64,000 bases of DNA from Neisseria sp. Ec49-e6-T10. GTDB lineage: Bacteria; Pseudomonadota; Gammaproteobacteria; Burkholderiales; Neisseriaceae. The stretch is from assembly GCF_051132615.1 (NCBI RefSeq), contig NZ_CP152375.1, positions 1,278,859 to 1,342,858 of the forward strand, in the 5' to 3' direction. The position numbers and the translations under genes were made by a program. Positions 12,695 through 60,950 of the stretch are shown one piece after another. Numbering within the stretch: position 1 is the stretch's first letter; each line of letters begins with the position of its first letter. Below the pieces are notes generated by a model. It was not told the DNA's origin, did not search any database, and saw only the letters and a list, made by a program, of their open reading frames with translations.

Positions 12695-14356
12695 TTAACT
12701 TTCTTTATGATGGGCAGGATGCGGATTTGCCTTCATTTTACGGTTAATCAACCATTGTTGTGTAATGGATAAAATATTATTCACAACCCAATACAACACC
12801 AAACCAGCAGGGAAGAAGAAGAACATAACCGAGAACATAATAGGCATAATCTTCATCATTTTTGCTTGTAATGGGTCAGGTGGCGGTGGATTCAAAAAAG
12901 TTTGAATAAACATGGTCACTGCCATCAAAATAGGCAATACATAAAATGGATCAGGACGAGCCAAATCATGAATCCACAAAACCCAAGGTGCTTGGCGTAA
13001 TTCCACCGATGCAAATAAAGCCCAGTACAAACCAATAAACACGGGAATTTGTAACACAATAGGCAAACAACCGCCTAATGGATTGATTTTTTCCTTTTTG
13101 TATAAAGCCATCATTTCTTGCTGTAGCTTCATTTTGTCGTCGCCACATTGCTCTTTTAACAATTGCAATCTAGGAGCAACAGCACGCATTTTCGCCATAG
13201 AACGATATGAGGCAGCCGTTAATGGATACAACACCAATTTAACAATAACGGTTAATAAAACAATTGCCCAGCCCCAGTTTTGTACCCAAGCATGCAACTT
13301 ATTCAATAACCAGAACAATGGTGTGGCAAACAAATACACTTTGCCATAATCTTTGGTTAGCTCCAGCTTATCTGCTACTTGAGTCACAATTTTATAGTCA
13401 GCAGGACCAGCATAAAGCGACATATTAAAGGTTTCTGATTTTTCAGGAGCAATGGCAGGTAATTGCACACGAACGCCTGAAGAATATAGACCATCTTTAC
13501 GTTTCTTGATTTCAAATTGACACGCATCTTTACCACAAACAGTTGGTTGCCCTTTGGGTTCCAACAACCATGTTGCAATAAAGTAATGTTGAATCATGCC
13601 TATCCAGCCAGTATTGGCACGGCGCACATAATCAACCGAATCAATTCCTTTACTAAAATCTTTATCTAAATCTTTAAAACTGACTTTTTCAAAAGAACCT
13701 TCTGGGGTGTACACAACTGGCCCCACATAAGTGGCAGCAAAATAACTTTCACCTTTAGGGGTTTGGTTATCACGCAACATAGAAAATACAGCACTTGGTG
13801 TCAGAGTTGCATCACTTAAATTATGCACAACATAACTTAACTCAATTTTATAACTGCCTTTGGTAAAAGTATAAATTTTATCAAGCGCAAAATTACCTTG
13901 TTTCGCAGTCAATTTAACTTGGAGTTGATCTCCTGTTAACTTATAACTATTTTGCTCTGCTACAAAAGGAATATCTTTGAATAGATATTGATTGTTTTGA
14001 TCCAACAACCCAGTTTGAGGCACATAAATATAATCATTTTTGTTACCAAACAAAGTCATGGTTTTTGATGCGTCTTCTGTTGCATCAAAATGAGTCAATG
14101 TTAAATTACGAATATCCCCACTGTCCGCATCAATCGTGCCACGAAAAACATCTGTTTCGAACTGAATTTGTTCCCCATTTTTTAAGACACTCTCGGTGAC
14201 TTTAACTGCACTTGTCTTGCCATTTGTTTGTGCACTTTGAGACTGTGTCGTCGCAGGTTTAGGCACAGGCGGTGGAAACATATAGTTCCACCCCACCATA
14301 ATGGCCAAGGAAACCACAAAAAAAGCGATAAGATTTCTTTTTTCCATAACACTCAA
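12695..14356 (-). CDS. yidC: membrane protein insertase YidC
   Basis: 553 aa; large periplasmic domain then 5 C-terminal TM helices; conserved position after yidD-rnpA-rpmH. Confidence 0.92.
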   Translation of the reverse strand: MSVMEKRNLIAFFVVSLAIMVGWNYMFPPPVPKPATTQSQSAQTNGKTSAVKVTESVLKNGEQIQFETDVFRGTIDADSGDIRNLTLTHFDATEDASKTMTLFGNKNDYIYVPQTGLLDQNNQYLFKDIPFVAEQNSYKLTGDQLQVKLTAKQGNFALDKIYTFTKGSYKIELSYVVHNLSDATLTPSAVFSMLRDNQTPKGESYFAATYVGPVVYTPEGSFEKVSFKDLDKDFSKGIDSVDYVRRANTGWIGMIQHYFIATWLLEPKGQPTVCGKDACQFEIKKRKDGLYSSGVRVQLPAIAPEKSETFNMSLYAGPADYKIVTQVADKLELTKDYGKVYLFATPLFWLLNKLHAWVQNWGWAIVLLTVIVKLVLYPLTAASYRSMAKMRAVAPRLQLLKEQCGDDKMKLQQEMMALYKKEKINPLGGCLPIVLQIPVFIGLYWALFASVELRQAPWVLWIHDLARPDPFYVLPILMAVTMFIQTFLNPPPPDPLQAKMMKIMPIMFSVMFFFFPAGLVLYWVVNNILSITQQWLINRKMKANPHPAHHKES

Positions 14357-14366
14357 CTTAATTTAA

Positions 14367-14576
14367 TCAAGGAACTGGGTCATAGCCACTGCCACCAAAC
14401 GGATGACACCGACAAAGACGTTTGACCATTAGAACACCGCCTTTTAAAGCACCGTGTTTCTTAATGGCCTCAATTGCATACTGCGAACAAGTAGGCGAAA
14501 AACGACAACTAGGCGCAAAGTATGGGCTAATACACAACTGGTAAAAGCGAATAAAATAAAGCATTATTTTGGCCAT
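14367..14576 (-). CDS. yidD: membrane protein insertion efficiency factor
   Basis: 69 aa with conserved CRF.PTCSQY and CRCHP motifs. Confidence 0.85.
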
Positions 14577-14579
14577 GCT

Positions 14580-14912
14580 TTACCTTTTCAGCAAAGAGGA
14601 TAAAGCAAGAATAGCCTCATTATGATGAGCTGCCTCAAATTTTTGCTTACTGCGGACAATATAATCAGCATGAACCAATTCATGTTTGTGACACCGAAAC
14701 CATTCACGAATGGTTCGTTTCATATAATTGCGCTCATGTGCCTTTTTTGCCACTTTTTTCGCTACTATTAACCCTAATCGAGGGTAATCTAGGTTATTTT
14801 TACCCCAGAAAACCTGAAAATAGGCATTGTTTTTGCTTCGACGAAACGCAAAAACGGATGAAAACTCATCCGCTTTTAGTAACCGATAACGTCGATCAAA
14901 ACCATTATTCAA
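14580..14912 (-). CDS. rnpA: RNase P protein component
   Basis: 110 aa basic protein, RNR-like motif KKAHERNYMKR; apparent TTG start 3 nt after the rpmH stop. Confidence 0.8.
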   Translation of the reverse strand: MNNGFDRRYRLLKADEFSSVFAFRRSKNNAYFQVFWGKNNLDYPRLGLIVAKKVAKKAHERNYMKRTIREWFRCHKHELVHADYIVRSKQKFEAAHHNEAILALSSLLKR

Positions 14913-14915
14913 GGC

Positions 14916-15050
14916 TTACACAGCCAAGCGCTTGCGGCCTTTGGCACGACGAGCAGCCAAAACAGCACGACCACCACGGGTTTTAGAGCGAACTAAAAAG
15001 CCATGAGTGCGTTTACGACGGGTAACTGAAGGTTGGTAAGTGCGTTTCAT
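14916..15050 (-). CDS. rpmH: 50S ribosomal protein L34
   Basis: Not in the ORF track (44 aa). Reverse-strand translation [44 protein letters not shown] is the canonical L34. Confidence 0.93.
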
Positions 15051-15140
15051 TTTAAATTATTCCTGATTCTCTAAGACAACATAAACTGCGCATTACACCC
15101 TGTTTATACTGATTTGTCAATGATTTTTAAGTAAATAGCC

Positions 15141-15149
15141 TGTGGATAA
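15141..15149. promoter_or_regulatory. consensus DnaA box (TGTGGATAA) in rpmH-dnaA intergenic / dnaA promoter region
   Basis: Perfect match to TTATCCACA (reverse orientation); only one perfect box seen in the 240-bp spacer. Confidence 0.6.
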
Positions 15150-15292
15150 GTAAGCAAAAATGCAGTAGAATGTATCTTTGGCGGAAAATTCGTGGGCACC
15201 AAGTTTATATCGATTCAAATATGATGTGATATAAATAGCCTGCTTATATATAATCAGCCGCCTTTTTAACCGCAGAATACCCCAAAACTTTA

Positions 15293-16720
15293 ATGAATGA
15301 TCACGTTGCAACTATGGATGTAAATAATTTCTGGTCAGCTTGTTTAGGCCAGCTTGAGGCAGATCTGTCTCCACAACAATTTAATACCTGGATTCGGACT
15401 TTAGCTGTCAGTGCTGATGACGAGAACTGGTTATTGTTGGTACCCAATCGTTTTATGTTGCAATTTATTAAAGAACGCTTTTTTGATCGCATTGATGCGA
15501 TTCGTGTTGAACTTGCCCCTACTTCACCCGAGCTTTTATTAAGGGTCAATGCACCACAAACACAAAGCAGTAAAACGGCAACAAACACAATTGCTCAAAA
15601 AAACAACAAAACCCAAGACAAGGCTGACATAAAAAAAAATCAGCCTCGGCCAACCCAAGAGCCTACATTGGGCAACTTACCTAAACGTAGCTTAGAAAAA
15701 GCACGTTTAAACCCTATTTACACATTTGATAATCTGGTGACAGGCAAAGGCAACCAACTGGCTCATGCCGCAGCATTACAAATTGCAGAAAACCCAGGTG
15801 ACAGTACCTACAATCCCATGTTTATTTATGGTTGTACAGGCCTAGGTAAAACCCATTTAATACAAGCAATTGGTAATAAAATCCATCAACTAAAACCTGA
15901 TGCGAATATTCGTTACATTCATGCTGAACGTTACGTGGCTGATATTATGAAGGCTTTTAGGGAAAAAGCTTTTGATGAATTCAAACGTTATTACCACTCT
16001 TTAGATTTATTATTGATTGACGACATCCAGTTTTTTGCAGGCAAAAACCGAACCATGGAAGAGTTTTTCTATGCGTTTAACGCTTTATTAGACAGCAAAA
16101 AACAAGTGGTCATTACCTGTGATACTTATCCTAGCCAAATTGATGGAATGGATGACCGCCTTAAGTCACGTTTTTCTTGGGGATTAACGGTTGAAATTCA
16201 ACCACCTGAATTAGAAATGCGGGTCGCCATTTTGCTGAAAAAAGCCATGGCAGAAAATGTTAAATTAGATAATGATGCGGCTTTTTTTATTGCGCAAAAT
16301 ATCCGCTCTAATGTGCGAGAACTAGAAGGCGCTTTCAAACGGGCGCTGGCAGTGAGCCGCTTTCAGTCAAAACCGATTACCTTAGAGTTAGCAAAAGAAG
16401 CTTTAAAAGATATTTTAGCTGTGGTACAAAGACAAATTACCATTGAAGGCATTCAAAAAACAGTGGCAGACTACTACCGTATTAAAGTATCTGACCTGTT
16501 AGGTAAAAAACGGACAAGAAATATCACCCGTCCGCGCCAGTTGGCAATGGCACTGGCAAAAGAATTAACCACACAAAGTTTACCAATGATTGGCAATGCT
16601 TTTGGGGGACGAGATCACACAACCGTGATGCACGCTTGCAAAACTATTGCTGATTTAAAACAAACCGATCCAAATATTGCACAGGATTTTGACACTTTGG
16701 TGTCTATCCTAAGAGATTAA
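15293..16720 (+). CDS. dnaA: chromosomal replication initiator DnaA
   Basis: AAA+ Walker A GCTGLGKTHL, C-terminal DnaA signature ...RPRQLAMALAKELT...GGRDHTTVMHA; start may be the second Met at 15314. Confidence 0.95.
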   Translation: MNDHVATMDVNNFWSACLGQLEADLSPQQFNTWIRTLAVSADDENWLLLVPNRFMLQFIKERFFDRIDAIRVELAPTSPELLLRVNAPQTQSSKTATNTIAQKNNKTQDKADIKKNQPRPTQEPTLGNLPKRSLEKARLNPIYTFDNLVTGKGNQLAHAAALQIAENPGDSTYNPMFIYGCTGLGKTHLIQAIGNKIHQLKPDANIRYIHAERYVADIMKAFREKAFDEFKRYYHSLDLLLIDDIQFFAGKNRTMEEFFYAFNALLDSKKQVVITCDTYPSQIDGMDDRLKSRFSWGLTVEIQPPELEMRVAILLKKAMAENVKLDNDAAFFIAQNIRSNVRELEGAFKRALAVSRFQSKPITLELAKEALKDILAVVQRQITIEGIQKTVADYYRIKVSDLLGKKRTRNITRPRQLAMALAKELTTQSLPMIGNAFGGRDHTTVMHACKTIADLKQTDPNIAQDFDTLVSILRD

Positions 16721-16749
16721 CTGGCTAAAAATTAAGAGGGAAACCTGTT

Positions 16750-17853
16750 ATGCTGATTTTACAAACTGAAAAAGACTCACTACTTAAGCCTTTAAAAACG
16801 GTAACAGGCATTATTGAACGCCGCCATACCTTACCGATATTATCCAATGTCTTAATTGAAAACAAAGGTGGTAAAACCTCTTTACTCAGTACCGACTTAG
16901 AAATTCAGATTCACACAACAGGGTTTGAATCGCAAGCGGAAGATTTTCGTTTGACCACAAATGCAAAAAAATTACAGGATATTTTGCAGGCTTTACCAGA
17001 CAGCTCTTTAGTCTCTCTTGATTTAGCCCAAGATCGTGTGACTTTAAAAGCAGGAAAAAGCCGCTTTAACTTACAAACATTACCAGCAGATGATTTTCCT
17101 TTATTGGCAGTAGATGACGAAGTATCAGCTTGTTTTAGCATCAACCAAAACGTACTCAAACAAATGCTCTCACAAGTGCAATACAGTATGGCGGTGCAAG
17201 ACATCCGTTATTACTTAAATGGTTTGCTGATGCAAGTTGAAGGCAATCGCTTAAACCTTGTGGCAACCGATGGTCATCGTTTGGCTTTATCCAGTGCCAC
17301 AATTGATGCCGACTTACCCAAAGCAGAAGTCATTTTGCCACGAAAAACCGTGTTGGAATTGTCTAAGTTACTGAGCCAACCAGATGAAGACATCACCATT
17401 GAGTTACTGAACAATCAGGTACGTTTTCGTTGTGGTGAAAGTGTGATTGTCAGCAAAATTGTGGATGGCAAATTCCCAGACTACAAACGTGTGATCCCAT
17501 TAGACAATGACAAAATTTTCTTGGTTGGTCGCACTCAGTTATTAAGCGCATTAGAGCGTGCCGCTATTTTAGCCAATGAAAAATTCCGTGGCGTACGTTT
17601 ACTGATTAAACCTGGTATTTTAAGCATTGTGTGTAGCAACAATGACCAAGAAGAAGCCCAAGAAGAAATCGAAATTGCCTATCAAGGTGAACCATTGGAA
17701 ATGAGCTTTAATATTGCATACCTAATGGATGTCTTGCGTAATGTCCCTGTGGACAACTTACAACTGGCTTTTGGCGATGCGAATCGCTCAAGTCTGTTCA
17801 CCATCCCTGAGTATGCAGACTTCAAATACATCGTGATGCCAATGCGCATTTAA
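16750..17853 (+). CDS. dnaN: DNA polymerase III beta sliding clamp
   Basis: 367 aa, three-domain clamp, ends ...MPMRI; AGAGGGA RBS. Confidence 0.93.
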   Translation: MLILQTEKDSLLKPLKTVTGIIERRHTLPILSNVLIENKGGKTSLLSTDLEIQIHTTGFESQAEDFRLTTNAKKLQDILQALPDSSLVSLDLAQDRVTLKAGKSRFNLQTLPADDFPLLAVDDEVSACFSINQNVLKQMLSQVQYSMAVQDIRYYLNGLLMQVEGNRLNLVATDGHRLALSSATIDADLPKAEVILPRKTVLELSKLLSQPDEDITIELLNNQVRFRCGESVIVSKIVDGKFPDYKRVIPLDNDKIFLVGRTQLLSALERAAILANEKFRGVRLLIKPGILSIVCSNNDQEEAQEEIEIAYQGEPLEMSFNIAYLMDVLRNVPVDNLQLAFGDANRSSLFTIPEYADFKYIVMPMRI

Positions 17854-17857
17854 CGAT

Positions 17858-17898
17858 AAGGGTTGGGCACCCCCAACCCTTTACTATTGTTTTTTTTG
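17858..17898 (+). terminator. GC-rich hairpin plus T8 between dnaN and gyrB
   Basis: AAGGGTTGGGcacCCCAACCCTT 10-bp stem, then tactattg then TTTTTTTT. Confidence 0.55.
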
Positions 17899-17910
17899 GA
17901 ATCGAGATAA

Positions 17911-20307
<2,397 letters not shown>

Positions 20308-20907: not shown

Positions 20908-23064
20908 TTATGGTTGCTTTGTTGTATCTGGGAAAATAGTTGCTAGCTTTCCATCAGTTTTTATTATTCCAATTCGAACGCCTCTATATTCTCCAAAAAC
21001 AGCCTCACCATCTTTTATATCTGCAAAGTTTGATTGGTTAGCGATATGTTGTCCTGCATTTTCGATATCCTTATTCGTCCAATTTTCAGGGAACCAAGAT
21101 TGATTATTTCCTGTTCTTTTCGCCTTAATTTTATGGTCTGGTACATTTCCAATCCTAACACCATTAGGATAAGTTTTTTCGATATTTACTTCCAACCCAT
21201 TTTCTTTGAGAAAATCAATGTTAGATTGACCATGACCTCCTCCTTTCATTTTAGATATTTCTCCTGTGGAAGGGTTGACAGTAAAATCTCCAATATCTGC
21301 ATGTTTTAAACTTTGCTCTGGAATTTCCACTTTAGCAATGACCCCACTAGCTTTTTCAACTGCACCTAATTTTCTTTCTAAGTTAATGGTATTGTTTGTA
21401 TCATGTAAGGCATCAGCAGCCTTAGATAAATTCTTAGCATTCTTAGTCATACCCAAAGGAGCGACAGCAGCTAATACCTCAAAGCCAATTTTGCCATCCA
21501 TTCTACCCGATTCATCATACTTTCCTGCCACTTTAAGCTGTTGTACCTGTTCCTGACGATCTGTCAACATCCCATTAACACCTTTTATGAATTCATCAGG
21601 ATGCGCTGAATAATACATCGTCTGACCTGTAGCAGAACCAGCTAAAAAGCCTACTGAATTGAACAGACTATTCATCCGTTCATTATTCCGATGAATACTT
21701 TCTCTGGCTGCTGTTTGGTCATATAAGCCACCTAACAGCGAATAACCTACTGTATTGAGGATATCCTTAGACAATAAATTAGCATCATTTACCATCTCTT
21801 TTAAGCCACTGAGCATAGACTCATTAGCCCCTTTACTATAGGCTGCTTGTTCTACTTCTGTTAACGGTTTACCCTCATAATTGGTCATTTTCATGATAGG
21901 CATCACGCTTGGTTGTGCTGTAAGAGGACGAATATTAGATAAAGGCACATTTTGGGCGGTATTGTTTACCCACTGTAATGCCTCTACTGTATTGATTGAT
22001 TTATCTGAACGATTAACAGCAGCCTGTAATGTTTCACTCTGACTGAATTTATGCATAGCAGCAACTGAAACACCTTTATTAATTAAACTGTGTTCTTGAT
22101 AACGAGATAATTGTTCTTTAATAACACTTTCTAGTTCTTGTTTACTTAAACCATTTGCCATATTGGGATTATTGGCTACTTGATTATTGATATTTTGAAA
22201 GAGTTGAGTTATTTGGGTTTGTTGCTGTAAGTTAGGATTTCGTTCTCTTTGTTCTTCTAATGCTTGAGCTCTAGCCAGATCAATATGTTCATTGGCTAGG
22301 CTTTGACCTGTAACAATTTGACGTCCTGCTTGTTCATTTTTGGCTTGTTGCTCTTCTGTATATTGGCTACGGTCATAGGTATATTCTTTATTGGGTTGAA
22401 TATTAGGAATAATGTGTTGATTGCCATCTTTGAGCTTGATGTCTTTTATCTGTCCTGATCGATACAAAACCCCTAAAGCTTCATATGGATGCTCTGAGTC
22501 TAATTTTTGCGCCAAACTCCAGCCAGTATCGCCTTTTTGGGCAATGATTTTATGTTCAGTATTTTCTGGTTCTAATTGTGTTTCAACAGGTTTTTTTATG
22601 CTGTCTTCTAATGGCTCTCCAGCTATAATTTTTGGTGTGGATAGATTGAACTGTTCATTCTGTTTCCCTAAATTAAGCTGAATTTCTTCTTGATTAATCT
22701 GTAACTGATTAATTTTAGGCGGATCACCAGCATAATCATGTGTAACAAATCCTACGGCTTCTTTTAAGATGTATTGTTCTTTTGGGGTAAATTCAGATAA
22801 TTGTTTGTCTACTTGATGATTGTTCATCTGTTGAACAATCTCTTTTAATCTTCCTTTAGGTGGATAGGAACGATTAAAATGTTCACTAATCAGCTCTTGT
22901 TCTTTGTTTAGTTTCTCAGGGGCTTTTTCTGGTGCTTTAGCTTGTAATAATTCTTTATCGACACTTAACCCATGTTTTGCTAGAGTTTCTTCTACATTTA
23001 CAAAGGCATATTTATTGTTGCCTATATTAGCCATTAAACAACCTGTTTGAGGGCTGTAATACAT
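20908..23064 (-). CDS. polymorphic-toxin-like protein with nuclease-like C-terminal domain; N-terminal region Gln-rich; upstream in-frame extension interrupted by TAA
   Basis: 718 aa; the C-terminal 130 aa (GGGHGQSNIDFL...PDHKIKAKRTG...SWFPENW...QHIANQ) has conserved His/Lys in an arrangement reminiscent of RNase-type (EndoU-like) toxin tips; followed by a small gene; same frame stays open upstream to ATG 23319 except for one TAA at 23218..23220. Confidence 0.6.
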   Translation of the reverse strand: MYYSPQTGCLMANIGNNKYAFVNVEETLAKHGLSVDKELLQAKAPEKAPEKLNKEQELISEHFNRSYPPKGRLKEIVQQMNNHQVDKQLSEFTPKEQYILKEAVGFVTHDYAGDPPKINQLQINQEEIQLNLGKQNEQFNLSTPKIIAGEPLEDSIKKPVETQLEPENTEHKIIAQKGDTGWSLAQKLDSEHPYEALGVLYRSGQIKDIKLKDGNQHIIPNIQPNKEYTYDRSQYTEEQQAKNEQAGRQIVTGQSLANEHIDLARAQALEEQRERNPNLQQQTQITQLFQNINNQVANNPNMANGLSKQELESVIKEQLSRYQEHSLINKGVSVAAMHKFSQSETLQAAVNRSDKSINTVEALQWVNNTAQNVPLSNIRPLTAQPSVMPIMKMTNYEGKPLTEVEQAAYSKGANESMLSGLKEMVNDANLLSKDILNTVGYSLLGGLYDQTAARESIHRNNERMNSLFNSVGFLAGSATGQTMYYSAHPDEFIKGVNGMLTDRQEQVQQLKVAGKYDESGRMDGKIGFEVLAAVAPLGMTKNAKNLSKAADALHDTNNTINLERKLGAVEKASGVIAKVEIPEQSLKHADIGDFTVNPSTGEISKMKGGGHGQSNIDFLKENGLEVNIEKTYPNGVRIGNVPDHKIKAKRTGNNQSWFPENWTNKDIENAGQHIANQSNFADIKDGEAVFGEYRGVRIGIIKTDGKLATIFPDTTKQP

Positions 23065-28889: not shown

Positions 28890-30518
28890 TCAAGTTGAGT
28901 GTTGTTTGATTTTTTCCCAACTTAAATCGAATTTGGCCAAATATTTACGTAACCGATCTGAATCGTTACTCACTTGTTTGTGTGCTCTGGAGATAGCAAA
29001 TAACCGCCGCCCAGCTTCTGCCAAGGTAGGCGATTGCATGCACACATCTATCACCTGTTTAAGCTGACACTGATCAAATAAATCAAGTTGATCAGGTATT
29101 AATGCAGAGTATTGGGCTTTTATAGCGCCCTCTTCTTGCCAGTTTTGACTTAAACGCTCAATTTCTGTTTCAACCAATTCATTGGTAATATTATTGTGTT
29201 GTGCCAAAGTCGCCATTCTGGTGACAGATGCGGTTAATTCTCTAAAATTGCCTTGCCATAAGGCTTTATCCGAAGTGGCAAAGCGAAGATAGTGCGTTTT
29301 GGCCTCTTTATTAAAACGAGGCATTTTTTTATACTCTCGAGCAAAACGAGCCAGTTCATAATCTAGGTTAGGCTCTATGTCTTCTTTTCTTTGTGCCAAA
29401 CTTGGCAAAGCATAATGCCATAAGTTAATACGGGCAAATAAGTCTTCCCTAAAGAGCCCTTTACGCACTAAATTTTTTAGGCTTTTATGGGTACCTGCAA
29501 TAATTTGGAAGTCACTTTTAACTTCTTTATCGGCACCAAATGGATAAAATTTCTTCTCTTCTATGGCTTTAAGCAGCATGGCCTGTTCATCTAAACCAAG
29601 CTCGCCAATTTCATCTAAAAACAACATGCCTTTATCGGCTGACTTTAATAAGCCAGATCGCTCTTTTTCTGCTCCTGTAAAAGCCCCTTTTACATGCCCA
29701 AACAAAGTGGACATGGCACTGTCCCCACGCAAAGTAGCGCAATTGACTTCAACAAAAGGGCCATGTATTTGATGTTGTTGCACCTTTAATTCATAAATTC
29801 GTTTGGCTAAAAAGGATTTACCCGAACCTGTTGGCCCTTCTAATAAAATAGGTGCACACGAACGCTTAGCAACAATTTCTAATTCATCAATCAGTTGGTT
29901 GAATGTTCTATTTTTGGTGGCGATACCTGATTTTAAATAATCGGTTGCTTGAGCAGAGTACTGCTCAAAACGAGTGAAGATCTGATCATATCGATTTAGG
30001 TTTAAATCAATTTGGGTAATTTGCCCTAATGGGCATCGACTCATTATGTCCTCTTGTGTCTGTTCTTCACTAGACGCTTGGATCGCTTTGTTCGGGGGAG
30101 AAGCTTGTAATAATTTAGCGGGAAAAAAACGAGCCTCTGCCAATAAAAACCAGCAAATTTGTACCACATGAGTCCCTGTGGTGATGTGAATAGTGTATTC
30201 TTCTTGCTCTAAATTAAATGGGTAACGCTTAGCCAAATCGAATAAAACGGTATAAACCTGTTCAAAGTCCCAAGGGTCATCAATGGTCACTTCAATTAAA
30301 TTGATTTCAACATTAGGGGCAATATCTTTTATGTCTTCAACAACTCGGCGAGCCAATGCGGTGTCTTTACGGTGATAAAGCAATTCTAAACGATCAGCTT
30401 GTCCATGTTCTACTCGACAAATATCAATGGTTGGCCGCCAACGTAACCAGCGTCGTTTGCCTTTGCCTGTTTGATCTAAATTACTGCCTAAAAAACCAAA
30501 TATTACTTTTTTCATCAT
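28890..30518 (-). CDS. rtcR: sigma-54-dependent transcriptional regulator RtcR (CARF-like N-domain, AAA+ domain, HTH)
   Basis: 542 aa, collinear with E. coli RtcR (MMKKVIFGFLGSNLD..., GPTGSGKSFLAKRI, GAFTGA, ESELFGH-like region, C-terminal ...RLRKYLAKFDLSWEKI). Confidence 0.92.
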   Translation of the reverse strand: MMKKVIFGFLGSNLDQTGKGKRRWLRWRPTIDICRVEHGQADRLELLYHRKDTALARRVVEDIKDIAPNVEINLIEVTIDDPWDFEQVYTVLFDLAKRYPFNLEQEEYTIHITTGTHVVQICWFLLAEARFFPAKLLQASPPNKAIQASSEEQTQEDIMSRCPLGQITQIDLNLNRYDQIFTRFEQYSAQATDYLKSGIATKNRTFNQLIDELEIVAKRSCAPILLEGPTGSGKSFLAKRIYELKVQQHQIHGPFVEVNCATLRGDSAMSTLFGHVKGAFTGAEKERSGLLKSADKGMLFLDEIGELGLDEQAMLLKAIEEKKFYPFGADKEVKSDFQIIAGTHKSLKNLVRKGLFREDLFARINLWHYALPSLAQRKEDIEPNLDYELARFAREYKKMPRFNKEAKTHYLRFATSDKALWQGNFRELTASVTRMATLAQHNNITNELVETEIERLSQNWQEEGAIKAQYSALIPDQLDLFDQCQLKQVIDVCMQSPTLAEAGRRLFAISRAHKQVSNDSDRLRKYLAKFDLSWEKIKQHST

Positions 30519-30638
30519 ATATATTTTTATATATTAATAGATAAAATTATACAGTTTTCTCTTATCTTGATCTATCTATTTTTTATAAAAAAATTCAATA
30601 CCATTTAAAAACAATAAAATAACAATTTTTATATTTTT

Positions 30639-30654
30639 TGGCACAGTCATTGCA
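30639..30654 (+). promoter_or_regulatory. sigma-54 (-24/-12) promoter TGGCAC-N5-TTGCA directed toward the tRNA-like RNA / SPFH / rtcB operon
   Basis: Exact TGGCACagtcaTTGCA 120 bp upstream of (and divergent from) the rtcR start; AT-rich spacer between, suitable for IHF/UAS. Confidence 0.8.
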
Positions 30655-30785
30655 TATATACCCATGCCAACAAAAAAACAGTTTGGTTCAGTATACAAAG
30701 CTGACCGATGCATGGCGAATAGCTTAAGGTTATTTTCAAAATGTATGTCCTGTTGATTTGAAGGTATGCATCGCAAGATAAAAAT

Positions 30786-30833
30786 GGTAAAGCTCTGGTA
30801 TATACCAGTTTGCTTAGGTTCGAATCCTAATTT
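30786..30833 (+). ncRNA. partial tRNA-like module (hairpin plus T-arm-like TTAGG-TTCGAAT-CCTAA) immediately 5' of the full cloverleaf
   Basis: CTGGTATATACCAG palindrome followed by a T-arm consensus; no pairing acceptor stem found. Confidence 0.4.
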
Positions 30834-30909
30834 ATTTTGAATAGCTCAATAGGTAGAGCAGTTGATTATTAATCAACCTGTCATAGGTTCGACTCCTATT
30901 TCAAAAACC
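30834..30909 (+). tRNA. tRNA-shaped RNA element (76 nt perfect cloverleaf, anticodon AUU, encoded CCA); probably a Y-RNA/YrlA-like tRNA mimic in the rtc leader rather than a decoding tRNA
   Basis: Acceptor TTTTGAA/TTCAAAA (6 AU + 1 GC pairs), D arm GCTC-AATAGGTA-GAGC (A14, G18G19, A21), anticodon arm GTTGA-TTATTAA-TCAAC, 5-nt variable loop, T arm ATAGG-TTCGACT-CCTAT (T54 T55 C56 A58 C61), discriminator A, CCA; sits about 180 nt downstream of the sigma-54 promoter. Confidence 0.7.
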
Positions 30910-31208
30910 AAAATTGCCCTGTCTCGGCAAATGCTTAGGGTGCATTTAAAAGTAGTAAAAAAGCTGTACTACAGACTGACGCCGTGTTGTGGTAGGGAAC
31001 AAATGCCACAACAAGCACAAGAATACCGGTTATAGGTAACTGGATGATTGGCAAGCGAACAGATTGATATAGGTTCTTCTATATCGTGACATGAAGAAAA
31101 AATACGGTCATGAACAACTTATATCAGCTTTTGTTTCCCTTTTATTTCGTTTTATCACCCGTCATTTTTGTGTGGCTGAGGTCAATATTTTAAAAGGATG
31201 AATATAAA

Positions 31209-32792
31209 ATGTTACAAACAATCAAAGTAAAAAAAGATGAATTAGCGATCATTTATAAAGATGGTGAATTTAATGAAATTTTAAAAGCGGGGAAACATTA
31301 TTTATTTGGTTTGGGTACAAATAAAACAAACCAAATCATTAAACTTGACCAAAGCAATGTGGACACAAAATTAGCCGATTACTTAAGAAGTTTTCGCCAA
31401 GATATGATTAAAGAACACTGTATTGATGTGCAATTAAGCAAAAGCGAAATTGGTTTACGTTTTATAGACGAACAATTGGTTGAAATATTAATGCCTGAGA
31501 CCAAAACACTTTTTTGGCAAAGCCACATCAACCAAACGTTTGAAACCATTATGTTGGAAGATGATTATCGTATTCCTGAAGATATTGCCCAAAAATTAGT
31601 ACGAGCAAAAACAACTAAAGCAAAAATTATTGGTTTGGATCGTTTGATTATTGCACATATGACCAATGAACAAATCGGCTTATTGTTTATTGACAAACAA
31701 TTGGCTGCAATTGTGCCTTCTGGACAAAGTGTTGCTTATTGTGGCTATGTACATGAGGTGTTATTAAGCCAATATGCATTAGCAGAAAGCTTGATTCATG
31801 AAAAATTGGCAGAAGCAATCAGACAAACTTTACCTGAGCAATTGGATACCTATTGTTTGGAAATTGAAGTAGGTGCCAATGAAGCAGGGTTACGTTATGA
31901 AGATGATTTATTGGTCGAAATTTTAGCCCCTGGTTCTAAACGCTTGTATTGGAAAAACATGCGCAAACAACATTTGGTCAGCATTAATTTAAATAATGGC
32001 TATACTTTACCAAACACCATTGTGCAACAATTGGTTCAACCTCATTTGCGTCAACAAGGTGTGGTTGGGTATGAAAGTGTGTTGATTGCTCAAGTGCCTG
32101 CTTATTTTGTCGGTGTATTAAATGTTGATGGCAAAATACAGGGCTTATTGGATGCAGGTATCAGTGCTTACTGGCGTTTTAACCGTGAAGTCACTGTTGA
32201 GTTGGTGGATACCCGCTTACAAGCCATGGAGGTCACTGGGCAAGAAATATTAACCAAAGACAAAGTAAATTTGCGTGTTAATTTGGTTGCCAACTGGCGT
32301 TATCAAGATGTGTTATTGGCTTTTGAACGCTTATCGCGCCCAATGGAGCACTTATATAGAGAGTTACAATTGGGTTTACGTGAAGCCATTGGTACACGTA
32401 CTTTAGATGAGTTGTTGGAAAACAAAAACATCATTGATAAAGTGGTTTCGGCTCACGTGGCTGAGAAAATGCAGCAATATGGTATTGAAACAGCTTCTTT
32501 GGGGGTAAAAGATATTATTTTACCTGGAGACATGAAAGACATTTTGGCTCAAGTAGTTGAAGCGGAAAAATCAGCCCAAGCCAATGTGATTCGTCGTCGA
32601 GAAGAAACCGCGGCAACCCGCTCTTTATTAAACACAGCCAAAGTGATGGAAAACAACCCTGTTGCTTTACGTTTAAAAGAGATGGAAACATTAGAGCGTA
32701 TTGCTGAACGAATCGACAAAATTTCGGTAGTCGGTGGGTTAGACCAAGTATTACACGGTTTGGTGAATATTAGAAACATTGAAGCAAAATAA
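31209..32792 (+). CDS. SPFH/band-7 (stomatin/prohibitin-like) domain protein with long N-terminal region
   Basis: 527 aa; the C-terminal 200 aa match the SPFH fold (…GVKDIILPGDMKDILAQVVEAEKSAQANVIRRREETAATRSL…); AAGGA RBS; 39 nt upstream of rtcB. Confidence 0.75.
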   Translation: MLQTIKVKKDELAIIYKDGEFNEILKAGKHYLFGLGTNKTNQIIKLDQSNVDTKLADYLRSFRQDMIKEHCIDVQLSKSEIGLRFIDEQLVEILMPETKTLFWQSHINQTFETIMLEDDYRIPEDIAQKLVRAKTTKAKIIGLDRLIIAHMTNEQIGLLFIDKQLAAIVPSGQSVAYCGYVHEVLLSQYALAESLIHEKLAEAIRQTLPEQLDTYCLEIEVGANEAGLRYEDDLLVEILAPGSKRLYWKNMRKQHLVSINLNNGYTLPNTIVQQLVQPHLRQQGVVGYESVLIAQVPAYFVGVLNVDGKIQGLLDAGISAYWRFNREVTVELVDTRLQAMEVTGQEILTKDKVNLRVNLVANWRYQDVLLAFERLSRPMEHLYRELQLGLREAIGTRTLDELLENKNIIDKVVSAHVAEKMQQYGIETASLGVKDIILPGDMKDILAQVVEAEKSAQANVIRRREETAATRSLLNTAKVMENNPVALRLKEMETLERIAERIDKISVVGGLDQVLHGLVNIRNIEAK

Positions 32793-32831
32793 ACAAACCG
32801 CCTGTTTTTTAGGCGGTTTCAAGGATAAAAA

Positions 32832-34055
32832 ATGAGTAAATATCAAGTATTAAAAAATGAACAATGCAACCCCATTAAAATGTGGACAGAAGGCGTACCT
32901 GTTGAAGAAGATGCAAAACAACAATTATTGAACACGGCCTCTATGCCTTTTATATTTAGCCATATTGCGGTCATGCCTGATGTGCATTTAGGTAAGGGTT
33001 CAACCATTGGCAGTGTGATCCCGACTAAAAATGCCATTATTCCTGCAGCAGTTGGTGTGGATATTGGTTGTGGCATGATGGCTGTACGAACATCATTAAC
33101 AGCAAATGATTTACCTGATCATTTGTATGCCATACGCAGTGCCATTGAACAAGCGGTGCCTCATGGAAGAACCGTCAGCCGCAATACAAAACGAGACAAA
33201 GGCTCTTGGCAACAGCCTCCTCAGTTGATCGATCAATACTGGGCACAATTATTGCCTGGGTTTGAAAAATTAACCCAAAAACACCCTAGATTTAAAAATA
33301 CCAACCACTATAAACATTTAGGTACTTTGGGTACAGGCAATCATTTTATTGAACTGTGTTTAGATGAAAACGATCAAGTATGGGTGATGTTGCATAGTGG
33401 CTCACGCGGTGTAGGCAATGCCATTGGTTCTTATTTTATTGAGTTGGCGCAAAAAGACATGGAAGGCCATCTTGGCAACTTACCTGATAAAAATTTAGCG
33501 TATTTCCCAGAAGGAAGCGAACACTTTGATGACTATTTTGAGGCGGTCGGTTGGGCACAAGAATATGCCCGTTTAAATCGAGAAGCCATGATGAATCATG
33601 TGTTACTGGCGATAAAATCGGTGATTACCAAGCCATTTAAAACGGATTTAGAGGCGGTTAATTGCCATCATAACTATGTGCAAAAAGAAACTCATTTTTC
33701 AGAAGAAATTCTGGTCACACGTAAAGGTGCTGTTTCTGCCCAAAAGGGGCAATTGGGGATTATTCCTGGTTCTATGGGGGCAAAAAGTTATATTGTGCGT
33801 GGTTTGGGTAACGAGCAAAGTTTTTGTTCTTGTTCTCATGGCGCAGGCCGTGTAATGAGTCGAACAGCCGCAAAAAAACGCTTTACAGTGGCCGATCAAA
33901 TTGAAGCAACAGCTCATGTAGAGTGCCGTAAAGATGCTGCGGTGATTGATGAAATCCCCATGGCTTATAAAGACATTGATGCGGTTATGGCAGCACAAGA
34001 TGATTTGGTTGAAATTGTGCATCAGTTAAGACAGGTTGTGTGTGTTAAAGGGTAA
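32832..34055 (+). CDS. rtcB: RNA-splicing ligase RtcB (3'-phosphate/5'-hydroxyl RNA ligase)
   Basis: 407 aa, collinear with RtcB (…HSGSRGVGN…, metal-binding His/Cys, C-terminal CSHGAGR nucleotidyl-His region). Confidence 0.92.
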   Translation: MSKYQVLKNEQCNPIKMWTEGVPVEEDAKQQLLNTASMPFIFSHIAVMPDVHLGKGSTIGSVIPTKNAIIPAAVGVDIGCGMMAVRTSLTANDLPDHLYAIRSAIEQAVPHGRTVSRNTKRDKGSWQQPPQLIDQYWAQLLPGFEKLTQKHPRFKNTNHYKHLGTLGTGNHFIELCLDENDQVWVMLHSGSRGVGNAIGSYFIELAQKDMEGHLGNLPDKNLAYFPEGSEHFDDYFEAVGWAQEYARLNREAMMNHVLLAIKSVITKPFKTDLEAVNCHHNYVQKETHFSEEILVTRKGAVSAQKGQLGIIPGSMGAKSYIVRGLGNEQSFCSCSHGAGRVMSRTAAKKRFTVADQIEATAHVECRKDAAVIDEIPMAYKDIDAVMAAQDDLVEIVHQLRQVVCVKG

Positions 34056-47805: not shown

Positions 47806-47910
47806 GAAGGTGGCGAGCCTAACCCTCGGCACTAACAAACTTAACTTGGGCTGCTTGCTTCCGCACCTGACCCGTTGAGCTAAACTGCTATGCGAGGAGA
47901 CCCGCCATTG
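47806..47910 (-). ncRNA. ffs: signal recognition particle 4.5S RNA
   Basis: Reverse strand contains GGTCAGGTGCGGAAGCAAGCAGCC, the SRP RNA domain IV consensus; terminal helix UGGCGGGUCU/AGGCUCGCCA; GC-rich island in AT-rich spacer. Confidence 0.85.
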
Positions 47911-52288: not shown

Positions 52289-54004
52289 TCACCCCATCAG
52301 ATTAGGCGCATACTGATAAAGATTATCCCCACCCAATAATCCAATAGGATCCTGATTACTAAACCGTCCACTATCCGCATCATAATAGCGCATTAAATTA
52401 TAATGCAATCCCGTCTCAACATCATAATACTGATTTTGAAACCTAAACGGTTGATGACCTTGATGTAGGTTATGCTCTTCGGCTATTTTTCCCCAAGTTT
52501 GGTATTTCGCATACCAAATCAACTCCCCTTTTTCATCGGTTAACTCTTTGGGTAAGCCTACTTGATCTGTATGTAGGTAATTAATAACTATATTTTCACC
52601 AAGACTAATAAATGCTAAGGGAACAAAATTTTCTAATGATCTATCAGTACCTGCTACAGAAATCTCACTACCATAAATATATACAACGCTTCTTTCATAA
52701 CTTCTCTCTTGCAGTAACCGTGCGCCATCCCAAACAAATTCAGTTTTGTTTTCTAGGGTGTTCTTGCTGATTTGTTCTTTTCTGATTCTGCGTCCAAATA
52801 CATCGTAAATGTATTGCCAGTTTTCTTTTGTGCCTTTTTTATCAGTAATAGTGGCTTGTTGTAACTGTTGATTCAGGTTATAACTTAGCTCTAAGGTTCT
52901 ATCCTTCGCTTCTTTCCTCACCATATTACCCAGCTCATCATAATGGTAGGCGATCCCTTGATATGTTTGCACTCGGTTGGCGTGTTTGTCTATGGGTGAG
53001 ACTCCTGGGTCATCTTTTAATGGTGACCATGTCGGGTCACTGAGCATTTGCTCATAATAAGCTTTGTCTTTTATGGGTTGTTTGGGCTTAGGCTGGCTGT
53101 TTTCTTGCGCATCAATAATATTATGCGCTGGGTCAAAGGCAAATAGCTCTTGCCCTGCTTGGGTAATACGCCCTATTTTGTCATAAACGTATTGTAGACT
53201 GCTGCCTCTATTGTCTGACATTCGGGTTAAGTTACCCGCTTTATCGTATTGGTAGCTACGTTTAACGGGGCCACTGGCAATCAGCAGCTTATTTTTGTTT
53301 TTAAGGTCTAAATCTTGTTCAAATGAGGCAACTTGTTGTTTGATGCGCCCCATTGGGTCTAAATCGTAGAAGCTGGTTAGTTTACCTTGGCTGCGGCTGA
53401 TTTCTCGATGTAAGTCGTCCCGCTCAAAATCGCTGATCACTTTGCCGTCTATATTGATTTGGTGTAAATGGCCGCTACCGTAATAGAGGTAATTGATGGT
53501 TTGCCCTGTGGGCAATACGGTGGCAATACGGTTGCCTAACTCATCGTAAAAGTATTGCACTGTTTTGGCGGCGTTGGGGTCTAAAAAGGTTTCTTCTACG
53601 AGGGTTTGTGGGTCTAAATCGTAAGTGCGCTCACAAATCAATTGCCCTAATGGGTCATAATCCAGTTGTATCAGGCTATGTTCGTTTTTGGCTTGAATCA
53701 GTTGATTCAGTTCATTGTATTGGAATGTACTGTGTAGCTCCTGCGCACTTTGGCTGTCATGGGCATTTTTGGCGGTCAGTTGCCCTAAAGCATCACGCTC
53801 GTAGGTTTTTTGGATCAAGGCATTCAATTGGGTTAAATCGACATTGGGGTGATTGACTTGCCCGTAGAGTTTTTCTTGTACCAGTTCTGAGGCTAAGTTG
53901 TAATGGTAGCCGGTGGCTTTGCCATCAAAGCCAATTTCGCCAATTAGGTTATCCAGTATATCGTATCGTAGTGATATTGTTCGGTACTGCTGTAATAACA
54001 ACAA
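52289..54004 (-). CDS. orphan Rhs/YD-repeat fragment (no N-terminus, toxin tip deleted: ends …QYAPNLMG*)
   Basis: 571 aa of YD repeats; about 340 aa identical to residues of the main rhs gene; stops inside the PxxxxDPxGL core so no toxin domain. Confidence 0.8.
   Translation of the reverse strand: MLLLQQYRTISLRYDILDNLIGEIGFDGKATGYHYNLASELVQEKLYGQVNHPNVDLTQLNALIQKTYERDALGQLTAKNAHDSQSAQELHSTFQYNELNQLIQAKNEHSLIQLDYDPLGQLICERTYDLDPQTLVEETFLDPNAAKTVQYFYDELGNRIATVLPTGQTINYLYYGSGHLHQINIDGKVISDFERDDLHREISRSQGKLTSFYDLDPMGRIKQQVASFEQDLDLKNKNKLLIASGPVKRSYQYDKAGNLTRMSDNRGSSLQYVYDKIGRITQAGQELFAFDPAHNIIDAQENSQPKPKQPIKDKAYYEQMLSDPTWSPLKDDPGVSPIDKHANRVQTYQGIAYHYDELGNMVRKEAKDRTLELSYNLNQQLQQATITDKKGTKENWQYIYDVFGRRIRKEQISKNTLENKTEFVWDGARLLQERSYERSVVYIYGSEISVAGTDRSLENFVPLAFISLGENIVINYLHTDQVGLPKELTDEKGELIWYAKYQTWGKIAEEHNLHQGHQPFRFQNQYYDVETGLHYNLMRYYDADSGRFSNQDPIGLLGGDNLYQYAPNLMG
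52289..54004. repeat. Rhs core repeat copy A (paralogue of about 57150..58870; exactly identical block about 53120..53830 = 57981..58691)
   Basis: Identical antisense ORFs 53608..53856 and 58469..58717 prove at least 249 nt identity; by-eye alignment extends perfect identity to about 710 bp with 90-95% flanks. Confidence 0.8.
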
Positions 54005-54078
54005 AATCTCTCCGAACGTTAATAGACCAACTTTAAACCATAGCTTTCCTCAATTATCAACAATAATAGTAATCGAAT

Positions 54079-54660
54079 TTATTCGATTACTATTTTAAAA
54101 TTAGAATTATTTCTACAATATTTTAAAAAACTAATACTACTTTCTCTATCATTATTAAGAGCAATACATCCAAACCCTGTATCATCATGAGGATACACTG
54201 CAATATTAAGCTCAGGATTAATATAAAAACAAACCTGCCCGATAATACCAGAATGACTCATCATGAGTTTAGAAAGCATAATAAAATGATCATAATTAAA
54301 ACTAAAATCTAATGAACTAATTGGTAAAGAGCTATCACCATATAAATAGCTCTCAAAACTATCACTCATTGTTTTTAAGATTCCATTTTTTATAAAAAAT
54401 AAAAATGCATCATTATATTCTGCGAGAATTTCAGGATCACTCTCCGTTTTATCATCAAAAGATAATGCTGTCATGATAAAGAAATTATTATACTTACCAA
54501 AATAATCATCAAACATACTTACAGATTCTTGTACAATTTCAGAAGAATAACCATTTAACCGTTCAAAATATCCCACCCATCCTTTAGATGTACTGAATCC
54601 ATCGAAATTAAAATCCTCGAGTGAAACTTTTTTATCTATCAATTTTAATAATTTTTCCAT
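54079..54660 (-). CDS. immunity protein cognate to orphan Rhs toxin tip 2
   Basis: 193 aa, overlaps the 3' end of the orphan rhs fragment by 29 nt, as is typical for rhs toxin/immunity pairs. Confidence 0.6.
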   Translation of the reverse strand: MEKLLKLIDKKVSLEDFNFDGFSTSKGWVGYFERLNGYSSEIVQESVSMFDDYFGKYNNFFIMTALSFDDKTESDPEILAEYNDAFLFFIKNGILKTMSDSFESYLYGDSSLPISSLDFSFNYDHFIMLSKLMMSHSGIIGQVCFYINPELNIAVYPHDDTGFGCIALNNDRESSISFLKYCRNNSNFKIVIE

Positions 54661-55866
54661 CGCTTATCCCTACAGTTATCTTTTTGCTTTTATTAGGTGC
54701 AGACTTACCTATACCAACTTTCCATTCACCTGCTTTATCAGAGTGTGTAGTATGACTTTTACTCCATATTTCATTTGTGTGTTTATTTTTCCAATTTCCT
54801 TTATTTGCACGAGTAAAATCAGAAGGATGGGAAGTTGGTGTTCTCACAACATCGCCGACATTAGCATTATTAACTTTCTTTTTAGGATCGTCTAAATAAC
54901 ATTTAAACCCCCAAGGATCAATCCACCCCATCGGATTAGGCGCATACTGATAAAGGTTCGTCCCACCCAACAACCCAATCGGATCCTGATTGCTAAACCG
55001 CCCACTGTCCGCATCATAGTAACGCATTAAGTTATAATGCAGCCCTGTCTCAGCATCGTAATACTGGTTCTGGAACCTAAACGGTTGGTGACCTTGGTGT
55101 AGGTTATGCTCCTCGCTTACTTTACCCCAGGTCTGATATTTTGCATACCAAATCAACTCACCTTTTTCGTCGGTAAGCTCTTTAGGCAAACCGACTTGGT
55201 CTGTATGCAAGAAGTTTATTTGTGGCTCTTCTTGCTCTGGCTCTAATACGATTTGCGCTAAGGGTTCAAATCCTTCCTCTCGATAAATATAAGTAAAGGT
55301 TCGTTTATCGGTGCTTTCTTGTAATAACCGTGCACCATCCCATACAAATTCGGTTTTCTTTTCTATGACGTTATTGCTGATTTGTTCTTTTCTGATCCTG
55401 CGTCCAAAGACATCATAGGTATATTGCCAGCTTTCTTGTTTCTCTATTTTGCTATTGTGCGTTATATTCGCTGTAATTAATTGCTGGTTAAGGTTATAAC
55501 TCAGCTCTAAGGTCTTATCCTCCGCCTCTTTCCTCACCATATTACCCAGCTCATCATAATGGTAAGTAATCCCTTGATAGCTTTGCACTCGGTTGGCGTG
55601 TTTGTCTATGGGTGAGACTTCGGGGTCGTCTTTTAACGGTGACCATGTCGGGTCACTGAGCATTTGCTCATAATAAGCTTTGTCTTTTATGGGTTGTTTG
55701 GGCTTAGGTTGGCTGTTTTCTTGCGCATCAATAATATTATGCGCTGGGTCAAAGGCAAAGGTTTCTTGCCCTGCTTGGGTAATGCGTCCTATTTTGTCGT
55801 AAACGTAGCGTAAATTGTTGCCTCTGATGATATATCTATTATTTTTAAAACCCCATCTTTCACACC
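54632..55866 (-). CDS. orphan Rhs C-terminal fragment with alternative toxin tip (DPWGF-KCYLDDPKKK…); 5'-truncated, no start codon (first Met at 55663)
   Basis: Frame open from 55866; homologous to the main rhs 3' region (…RYVYDKIGRITQAGQ… …DPIGLLGGTNLYQYAPNPMGWIDPWGF) then a unique 100-aa C-terminus. Confidence 0.75.
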
Positions 55867-55896
55867 TCTAAACTTGGTCAGTATGCAGGTAATTTA

Positions 55897-56289
55897 CTAT
55901 ATTACTCCAAAATCCAATTCATCATAAACACATATACACCACGTTTCTTTCTTTCCAAGTAGATAGTTTTCTCCAGGATAATCCGTTAAAAATTTAAGAA
56001 CCAGCCTCAAAGCTGAAAAATCAATTAAATATCCTTGCTCGAAATCATAGCCAAATAAAATAATTTGCTGAGTGTCATTTATAGGGTACAATTGTTGAAT
56101 CATAAAGTAAAATTCGTCTACCTCAGCAATATTTTTCCTTTCATGTAAACTTAACTGACTCCAAGCAATTCTAGAACCCACAAAAGGAAATTTTTCCATA
56201 TTTGTATACCCATCAATTTCGTCATCAGCTAGAATAGAAAAAGTAATTCCCTCTCGTTCAGCAAATTCTATAAATTCTAAATCGTACAT
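55897..56289 (-). CDS. orphan immunity-like protein
   Basis: 130 aa acidic protein flanked on both sides by short rhs remnants (56340..56395 and 55860..55896). Confidence 0.5.
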   Translation of the reverse strand: MYDLEFIEFAEREGITFSILADDEIDGYTNMEKFPFVGSRIAWSQLSLHERKNIAEVDEFYFMIQQLYPINDTQQIILFGYDFEQGYLIDFSALRLVLKFLTDYPGENYLLGKKETWCICVYDELDFGVI

Positions 56290-56521
56290 ATTAACCTCTA
56301 ACGTCCAAATCTTCTCTGAATTTTTGTAACAGTTTTTGTGGTTTTTACCACTTCGGTTTTGTTTTCTATAGCGTTATTACTGATTTGTTCTTTTTTATTA
56401 AATTGTTGATTACTTATTTAAGAAAAGTATCCAATTTAAATTTTAATCGAACCTCTTCTATATTTTTAAGCACAATATTTCAAAAGGACTATTTTTGTTG
56501 TAACAAGGGCTTATCAAGTAA

Positions 56522-56854
56522 TTAATTTTCTATATGATCCAGCATTAACATAATTTCATTTTTGGATTTATCGTAAGGAGGCTTCCATAGTTGGCAATCC
56601 TCTTCTAACCAATCATCATATTCAGATGGAGAGATATTTTTTTGCAGTTCTTTATACAATACTTTTCTGGTAAAGGATAATTTATCTAAAACTTTTTTCT
56701 CTTTAAAAAATAATAAAAGTGCCATGGACATGGTTTCCCTATCTAAGAAACCAGAAGCAATTTTATCTACTACTGTTACAATTTCTTCAAGATATAAGGT
56801 TGAAGTTTTAACATCATTAATGTTTAATTTATTATCATTTTTCAATTTAGCCAC
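56522..56854 (-). CDS. immunity protein cognate to main Rhs toxin
   Basis: 110 aa, start overlaps the rhs stop by 8 nt. Confidence 0.6.
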   Translation of the reverse strand: MAKLKNDNKLNINDVKTSTLYLEEIVTVVDKIASGFLDRETMSMALLLFFKEKKVLDKLSFTRKVLYKELQKNISPSEYDDWLEEDCQLWKPPYDKSKNEIMLMLDHIEN

Positions 56855-60899: not shown

Positions 60900-60950
60900 T
60901 TTTGCTCTCCTTCACACCTTATCTAAAGCCAAACAGGTTACAACCATTAT

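Follow-up and report, generated by a model that had tools for sequence, protein, structure and literature searches.

A minimal RtcR-linked operon of a tRNA-like RNA, a slipin-family protein and RtcB in Neisseria sp. Ec49-e6-T10

The locus, its regulator and its ligase

The gene cluster considered here lies at positions 28,890 to 34,055 of a 64,000-nucleotide stretch of the chromosome of Neisseria sp. Ec49-e6-T10 (NZ_CP152375.1, positions 1,278,859 to 1,342,858), a stretch which, taken at its full length of 64 kb, we call the window. In this cluster a gene for the regulator RtcR is placed divergently from an operon consisting of a structured leader with a tRNA-shaped element, a gene for a slipin-family (SPFH/Band-7) protein and rtcB, the whole being very probably one instance of an RNA-repair operon of an already predicted kind. 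The window was analysed from its list of open reading frames (ORFs) together with ARAGORN, Rfam, Pfam, NCBIfam and tblastn.

The regulator gene (28890-30518, minus strand) encodes a protein of 542 aa that combines a CARF domain with a sigma-54 AAA+ activator domain (Pfam RtcR/CARF 232 bits; Sigma54_activat 170 bits), and which matches both the NCBIfam equivalog NF038308 (RNA_repair_RtcR; 771 bits against a cutoff of 650) and the PADLOC model for RtcR (806 bits). Facing the operon is a sigma-54 (-24/-12) promoter, TGGCACAGTCATTGCA (30639-30654, plus strand), a perfect consensus match and the sole zero-mismatch occurrence of TGGCAC-N5-TTGCW in the window. Such a pattern is by itself weak evidence, one-mismatch matches being expected by chance; a TGGCAC-N5-nnGCA element is, however, found at the equivalent place in all 75 of the 75 related rtcR-slipin intergenic regions, agreeing with the consensus at 10 of 11 positions in nearly all of them and at 9 in three, and lying approximately 100-275 nt, mostly 135-185 nt, from the rtcR start. 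Sigma-70-like sites are not commoner than expected by chance. On the plus strand, the stretch from the tRNA-like element to the slipin gene is predicted to contain no intrinsic terminator, which is consistent with co-transcription of the tRNA-like RNA and the genes.

The distal gene, rtcB (32832-34055, plus strand), encodes a 3'-phosphate/5'-OH RNA ligase of 407 aa (Pfam RtcB 448 bits) with 73% identity to the RtcB of E. coli K-12, and follows the slipin gene on the same strand at a distance of 39 bp. A tblastn search with E. coli RtcA finds no counterpart in the window, while the same search finds rtcA in 12 related loci; RlaP, a nucleotidyltransferase often encoded 3' of rtcB and the subject of a 2025 biochemical preprint, is likewise absent from the window, and no window ORF of at least 300 aa carries a TROVE domain. 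The operon is thus a minimal form, comprising the RNA, the slipin and RtcB only. The elements which a preliminary description of this DNA had named, namely rtcR set divergently from a perfect sigma-54 promoter, the cloverleaf, the 527-aa Band_7 protein and RtcB, were all found where it had put them, and its further statements, that neither rtcA nor rsr/Ro60 accompanies the operon (the tblastn search and the domain scans being empty for the window as a whole) and that an autotransporter gene lies downstream of rtcB, were also confirmed. This last ORF, of approximately 1,000 aa and identified by Pfam, extends from 34372 with a likely ATG at 34402 or 34435.

The 39-nt gap between slipin and rtcB contains a GC-rich hairpin (32795-32819, plus strand) with a perfect stem of about 8-9 bp, AAACCGCC...GGCGGTTT. 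This hairpin is not followed by a U-tract on the plus strand and is therefore not a classical terminator; it could be an element of mRNA processing or stability.

The tRNA-like cloverleaf

Within the leader, and 298 nt upstream of the slipin start, ARAGORN reports the single tRNA-shaped gene of the entire window (30835-30910, plus strand), which it labels tRNA-Asn (ATT). The element, 76 nt long, is matched over its full length by the Rfam tRNA model (68.3 bits, E 9e-13) and reaches 87.6 bits with R1, a covariance model built from 22 cloverleaf elements (alignment A2), in agreement with the preliminary claim of a complete cloverleaf inside the sigma-54 leader ahead of the slipin gene. Full-length cloverleaves scoring 70-91 bits with R1 occur in 25 sources, the window and 24 related loci, always at the identical position in the leader, and their carriers comprise, besides the window, Orbales, Ventosimonas, Betaproteobacteria and a few metagenome-assembled genomes. 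In the 22-sequence alignment compensatory changes are observed at 11 of the 19 pairs predicted by RNAalifold. Conservation in this family extends to the acceptor stem (UUUGRA/UYCAAA) as well as to the D and T arms, and the window as well as several Orbales loci encode the 3' end as ACCA.

The anticodon loop, by contrast, is hypervariable in both sequence and length, several loops departing from 7 nt, and the 'anticodons' which ARAGORN assigns to orthologous elements include aat, atc, cgg, agg, cag, acc, aac, ggt, cat, caa, gaa and gtt. That of the window copy is AUU, its first base being A34, and such an anticodon is not normally used for decoding in bacteria. The element thus has the canonical cloverleaf of a decoding tRNA without a conserved, usable anticodon and, judged from its sequence, it is not a decoding tRNA, this being ruled out by the variability of the loop together with A34 in the window copy. 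The possibility of a Y RNA in disguise was considered and rejected, since matches to the YrlA family (RF02553) amount to 27 bits (27.4 in the window) and 21 bits, well below the gathering score of 69; these weak matches arise because a first T-arm, that of the element described next, is followed by the D-arm of the cloverleaf.

Modular structure of the leader

The cloverleaf is not the only tRNA-like unit of the leader. While this part of the preliminary account stood, it had made no mention of a second, partial element, here called element 1 (30776-30834, plus strand), which is located directly 5' of the cloverleaf, matches R1 partially (30776-30830, 17 bits) and contains a T-arm stem-loop at 30814-30830, GGTTCGAATCC. 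The T-loop motif GGTTCGAnTCC is found in the leader of 72 of the 75 rtcR-slipin regions, and the composition of the leader around it varies with the lineage. Two copies of the motif, approximately 70-75 nt apart, are present in the window, in the betaproteobacterial loci and in four other loci; Orbales leaders retain the cloverleaf alone; and in Enterobacterales, Proteus and Xenorhabdus all that is kept is a minihelix of about 45 nt, made up of acceptor and T-arm and devoid of an anticodon arm.

Between the promoter and the first T-arm most of the related leaders contain a further domain of about 70 nt, in which a hairpin (P1) precedes a long bulged hairpin (P2; CCGGYGC...GYRTKCCG). A covariance model of this P1-P2 domain, R2, scores 46-70 bits in 70 loci (for example at 5727-5794 of locus L037 and at 5503-5573 of locus L044), and in the alignment fitted to the model compensatory changes occur at 20 of 21 pairs, with 91% of the cells paired as against 43-52% in slid controls. 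In the window its counterpart (30684-30773, plus strand) has diverged: R2 yields 19 bits (E 0.3) at 30684-30753, and the minimum free energy fold, which pairs CGAUGCAU (beginning at 30706) with AUGCAUCG (ending at 30773), forms hairpins analogous to P1-P2. Model R2 does not detect the domain in the Orbales leaders. Rfam searches of the leaders of the enterobacterial relatives returned no family at gathering or permissive thresholds and left P1-P2 unmatched; this domain may be an undescribed RNA motif, unless it was covered by Burroughs and Aravind in 2016.

The remaining 3' part of the leader (30911-31208, plus strand), as judged from the leader alignment, harbours a conserved nucleotide block at approximately 31135-31163 (TTCCCTTTTATTTCGTTTTATCACCCGTC; TTCCC..TTTCGTT..CCCGT), some 45-75 nt upstream of the slipin start, which aligns across the leaders of Orbales, Ventosimonas and Neisseriaceae. 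A possible ORF of 37 codons (31093-31206) overlaps this block and ends at the slipin ribosome-binding site. As a peptide this ORF is not clearly conserved, such ORFs being kept inconsistently across the clades and the nucleotide block alone being conserved; the segment may encode a peptide or may be an RNA or DNA signal.

The slipin-family protein

The first protein-coding gene of the operon (31209-32792, plus strand) specifies a protein of 527 aa, for which a 100% identical record carries the NCBI name 'slipin family protein'. Its Pfam Band_7 match (109 bits) is confined to residues 295-466, and since the profile search gives Band_7 only, the earlier assignment of the protein to the SPFH/band-7 class, and not to TROVE/Ro60, is upheld. 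From the N-terminus, two modules of about 140 aa in tandem are followed by the SPFH domain and a long C-terminal helix. The modules represent a tandem duplication (residues 46-184 against 191-328; 30% identity, E 5e-23), in distinction to the common slipin form of about 375 aa, as in E. coli, which has one copy; in the long forms of Xenorhabdus the module is likewise duplicated, at a different alignment point.

The SPFH core with its long helix resembles the cage- and ring-forming stomatin, HflK/C and prohibitin, and the major vault protein (MVP) was matched too. Of the features that characterise a membrane SPFH scaffold the protein possesses the SPFH domain and the oligomerising helix, and lacks the N-terminal anchor or hydrophobic hairpin. 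No transmembrane segment is predicted, the highest 19-residue Kyte-Doolittle mean, 1.43, being located in a region of beta-strands (residues 284-304). The slipin is accordingly predicted to be soluble and not anchored in the membrane, and the proposal that it is a 'membrane-scaffold protein' is not borne out, no segment of it attaining the transmembrane level.

Distribution across genomes

When species-representative genomes were scanned with the 527-aa protein, 194 encoding stretches were obtained, the best 80 of which were kept as loci. Among these best 80 of 194, rtcR is divergent from the slipin gene in 75, and the slipin gene is linked to rtcR, rtcB or rlaP in 78. The commonest layout is rtcR/slipin-rtcB-rlaP (26 loci), followed by that of the window, rtcR/slipin-rtcB (20 loci), and by rtcR/slipin-rlaP (17 loci); 12 loci, mostly of Betaproteobacteria, also carry rtcA, and 5 have no adjacent rtcR. 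Compared with dozens of loci of the same layout the window shows approximately 46-66% identity for the slipin and 70-77% for RtcB, the proteins being orthologous.

In E. coli the leader and the slipin gene are present in 1,632 of 5,426 complete genomes (~30%), in which the coding sequence alone is annotated. The E. coli locus (L001, 5686-5830) has the sigma-54 promoter, P1-P2 and the T-arm minihelix upstream of slipin-rlaP, with neither rtcR nor rtcB adjacent, an arrangement which implies that RtcR encoded at the separate rtcBA locus controls it in trans. This locus adjoins P2-like prophage tail genes. The phage or defence-island origin raised by these neighbours was rejected: no phage record encodes the slipin, and PADLOC gives no matches for slipin, RtcB or RlaP. 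Additional genes are found in some betaproteobacterial loci (L063, 7137-7896; L042, L045, L046), where 350-770 nt and an ORF of 139 aa separate slipin from rtcB; a search of these gaps for extra noncoding RNA (ncRNA) returned only weak T-arm-like matches. The same loci have further ORFs, of 465 and 282 aa, around rlaP and before rtcA (L063, 9118-12215).

Relation to known systems

The association of RtcB with a Band-7 protein and a tRNA-like 'b7a-tRNA' is credited to Burroughs and Aravind (2016, NAR) in the relevant passage of bioRxiv 10.1101/312249, where occasional exchanges of b7a-tRNA for YrlA, and the reverse, in Rsr and Band-7 contexts are also mentioned. Comparative genomics had thus predicted the system in 2016, and it is widely distributed among Proteobacteria, the window being a new example and not a new kind; the suggestion of an 'undescribed variant' consequently fails, the more so as the layout recurs in 75 of the 80 loci. 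As far as that passage conveys the arrangement, the Band-7 gene, the tRNA-like RNA and RtcB all occur in it as described, the differences being that the window is without RlaP and RtcA, that its slipin has 527 instead of about 375 aa and that its P1-P2 domain is strongly diverged.

The slipin operon and the Ro60(Rsr)-Y RNA-RtcB operon are sister arrangements. With the rsr-yrlBA-rtcBA operon of Salmonella it shares RtcR/sigma-54 control, a putative RNA-binding scaffold protein, a tRNA-mimicking ncRNA and RtcB; in contrast to the Salmonella operon, it lacks both a TROVE/Ro60 protein and RtcA, and its RNA is a complete, non-permuted cloverleaf instead of a Y RNA with a Ro-binding stem. The canonical rtcR/rtcBA locus of E. 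coli has in common with it the RtcR equivalog, the divergent sigma-54 promoter and an RtcB that is 73% identical, yet the window has no rtcA and interposes a structured leader of about 540 nt and the slipin gene before rtcB, whereas in E. coli K-12 the rtcR-rtcB intergenic region measures 188 bp in all. An SPFH protein, PaFlo8, is 'embedded within the rtc locus' of P. aeruginosa PA14 according to a 2026 study (PMC13086221), and by this description that RtcR-regulated locus is likened to ours, with the difference that RlaP (PMC12776372) and RtcA are also present there. Among the closest systems we also count the eukaryotic vault particle, with the SPFH-like shoulder of MVP, the vault RNA and the TROVE-domain protein TEP1.

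A working model and its alternatives

We put at roughly 85% the probability that the locus is one instance of the RtcR/sigma-54-controlled RNA-repair operon of Band-7 protein (slipin), b7a-tRNA and RtcB. The parts of this operon, their order, their conservation and the covariation of the RNA are demonstrated; the course of events that we infer for it is as follows. RNA damage would yield tRNA halves with 2',3'-cyclic phosphate ends, which would activate the CARF domain of RtcR, by homology with Salmonella, whose RtcR is switched on by tRNA 5' halves with such a terminus (PMC7790460). Active RtcR would then fire the sigma-54 promoter to produce a single transcript with the structured leader, the slipin gene and rtcB, and tRNA-processing enzymes would release the tRNA-like units from the leader. 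The released RNA would join an oligomeric, soluble slipin scaffold, in parallel to Y RNA with Ro60, and this scaffold would help RtcB to find or handle broken tRNA-shaped substrates, the breaks being resealed by RtcB.

Several points weigh against this reading. The notion of a slipin-RNA scaffold or ribonucleoprotein is an argument by analogy with Ro60 and Y RNA; b7a-tRNA is described as lacking experimental validation in the passage of bioRxiv 10.1101/312249 concerned with it; and deletion of PaFlo8 gave no phenotype in standard assays (PMC13086221). Moreover, the cloverleaf is dispensable in many lineages, and because the Enterobacterales have the minihelix only, the system must be able to do without the full tRNA shape.

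The RNA could instead act as a decoy or sensor, in that the tRNA-like RNA would bait anticodon nucleases and either release a cyclic-phosphate 5' half which binds the CARF domain of RtcR, in a positive feedback, or titrate the nuclease, the hypervariable anticodon loop then reflecting an arms race with different ribotoxins. That almost every lineage has a loop of its own within an otherwise conserved cloverleaf, and that an EndoU-type RNase toxin is encoded within the window (20908-23064), are in keeping with this proposal. Yet the variability fits an absence of constraint equally well, several loops not being of 7 nt, and the enterobacterial versions have no anticodon arm; furthermore, the RNA is made only after activation of RtcR and so cannot be the primary sensor. 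On balance we regard a decoy or sensor as unlikely.

A leader operating in cis also seems improbable to us. The 5' untranslated region with its tRNA-like units would here yield no stable trans-acting RNA, and would act on the slipin-rtcB mRNA itself, whose stability or translation could be set by RNase P/E processing at sites in the leader or by a switch that binds a protein or a tRNA. The location of the elements downstream of the promoter and ahead of the first gene, uninterrupted by a terminator, the strongly covarying P1-P2 domain kept in 70 loci and the conserved block just upstream of the slipin start codon would all agree with such a function. However, the operon-encoded Y RNAs of the homologous Rsr system are stable trans-acting RNAs, and the complete cloverleaf, the conserved acceptor stem and the CCA encoded in the window's clade look like a processed product.

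The modularity of the leader permits yet another proposal, distinctly unlikely when taken jointly with all of its parts, in which the sigma-54 leader is an ncRNA precursor of the P1-P2 domain, the acceptor/T-arm minihelix and the b7a cloverleaf. The core of wide distribution seems to consist of P1-P2 and the minihelix, a combination shared by Enterobacterales and Betaproteobacteria; individual lineages would have added the cloverleaf, whose freely evolving anticodon loop would bait anticodon nucleases and whose halves would feed back on RtcR; and it may in fact be P1-P2 to which the slipin binds, as Ro60 does to its stem in Y RNAs.

It is very unlikely that the slipin is a conventional membrane-microdomain SPFH scaffold of the stomatin or HflK/C type, with no role in RNA metabolism and an incidental linkage to rtcB. 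The SPFH fold with its C-terminal helix and the name 'slipin family protein' speak for such a scaffold, but neither a transmembrane segment nor a hydrophobic hairpin is predicted, no NfeD partner is found among the flanking ORFs scanned, the link to rtcR, rtcB or rlaP holds in 78 of 80 loci and the slipin of E. coli keeps its sigma-54 leader even where no rtcR is adjacent. Finally, an ordinary or decaying tRNA gene that lies next to the operon by chance is scarcely credible, for while generic tools do score the cloverleaf as a tRNA, its anticodon with A34 is not one that bacteria normally decode with, it is situated inside a sigma-54 leader, and its counterparts in 24 other loci display about a dozen 'anticodons' and odd loop lengths yet share the acceptor stem.

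Neighbouring genes

The window spans the neighbourhood of the chromosomal origin, with yidC, dnaA, dnaN and gyrB at 12695-20307. The toxin gene mentioned above, an ORF of 718 aa on the minus strand (20908-23064), has a C-terminal bacterial EndoU nuclease domain (Pfam 60 bits) and the look of a polymorphic RNase toxin, and is placed approximately 8 kb from the RNA-repair operon; toxins of the EndoU type leave RNA ends with a cyclic phosphate, and these are of the substrate class of RtcB. On the other side of the operon a small SRP RNA is encoded at 47809-47906 (minus strand; Rfam 67 bits), and a cluster of RHS-repeat ORFs of 571, 343 and 1350 aa occupies 52289-63674 on the minus strand, the 1350-aa ORF having a PAAR-like N-terminus and a Tox-ART-HYD1 ADP-ribosyltransferase tip. 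Beside these is a ClpB/ClpV-like double AAA+ ATPase (907 aa), and the region has the appearance of a type VI secretion effector region.

Significance

The system to which we assign this locus is common, with E. coli, Klebsiella, Proteus and P. aeruginosa among its carriers, and it bears on the role of tRNA mimics such as YrlA and b7a-tRNA in bacterial RNA repair. The window locus introduces no new concept and is a compact, natural minimal version of the system, the residual interest of which lies in the modular architecture of the leader documented in this analysis. A minimal locus of this kind, together with the mapped architecture of its leader, could guide work on the parts played by the SPFH protein and the tRNA-like RNA in RtcB-mediated repair.

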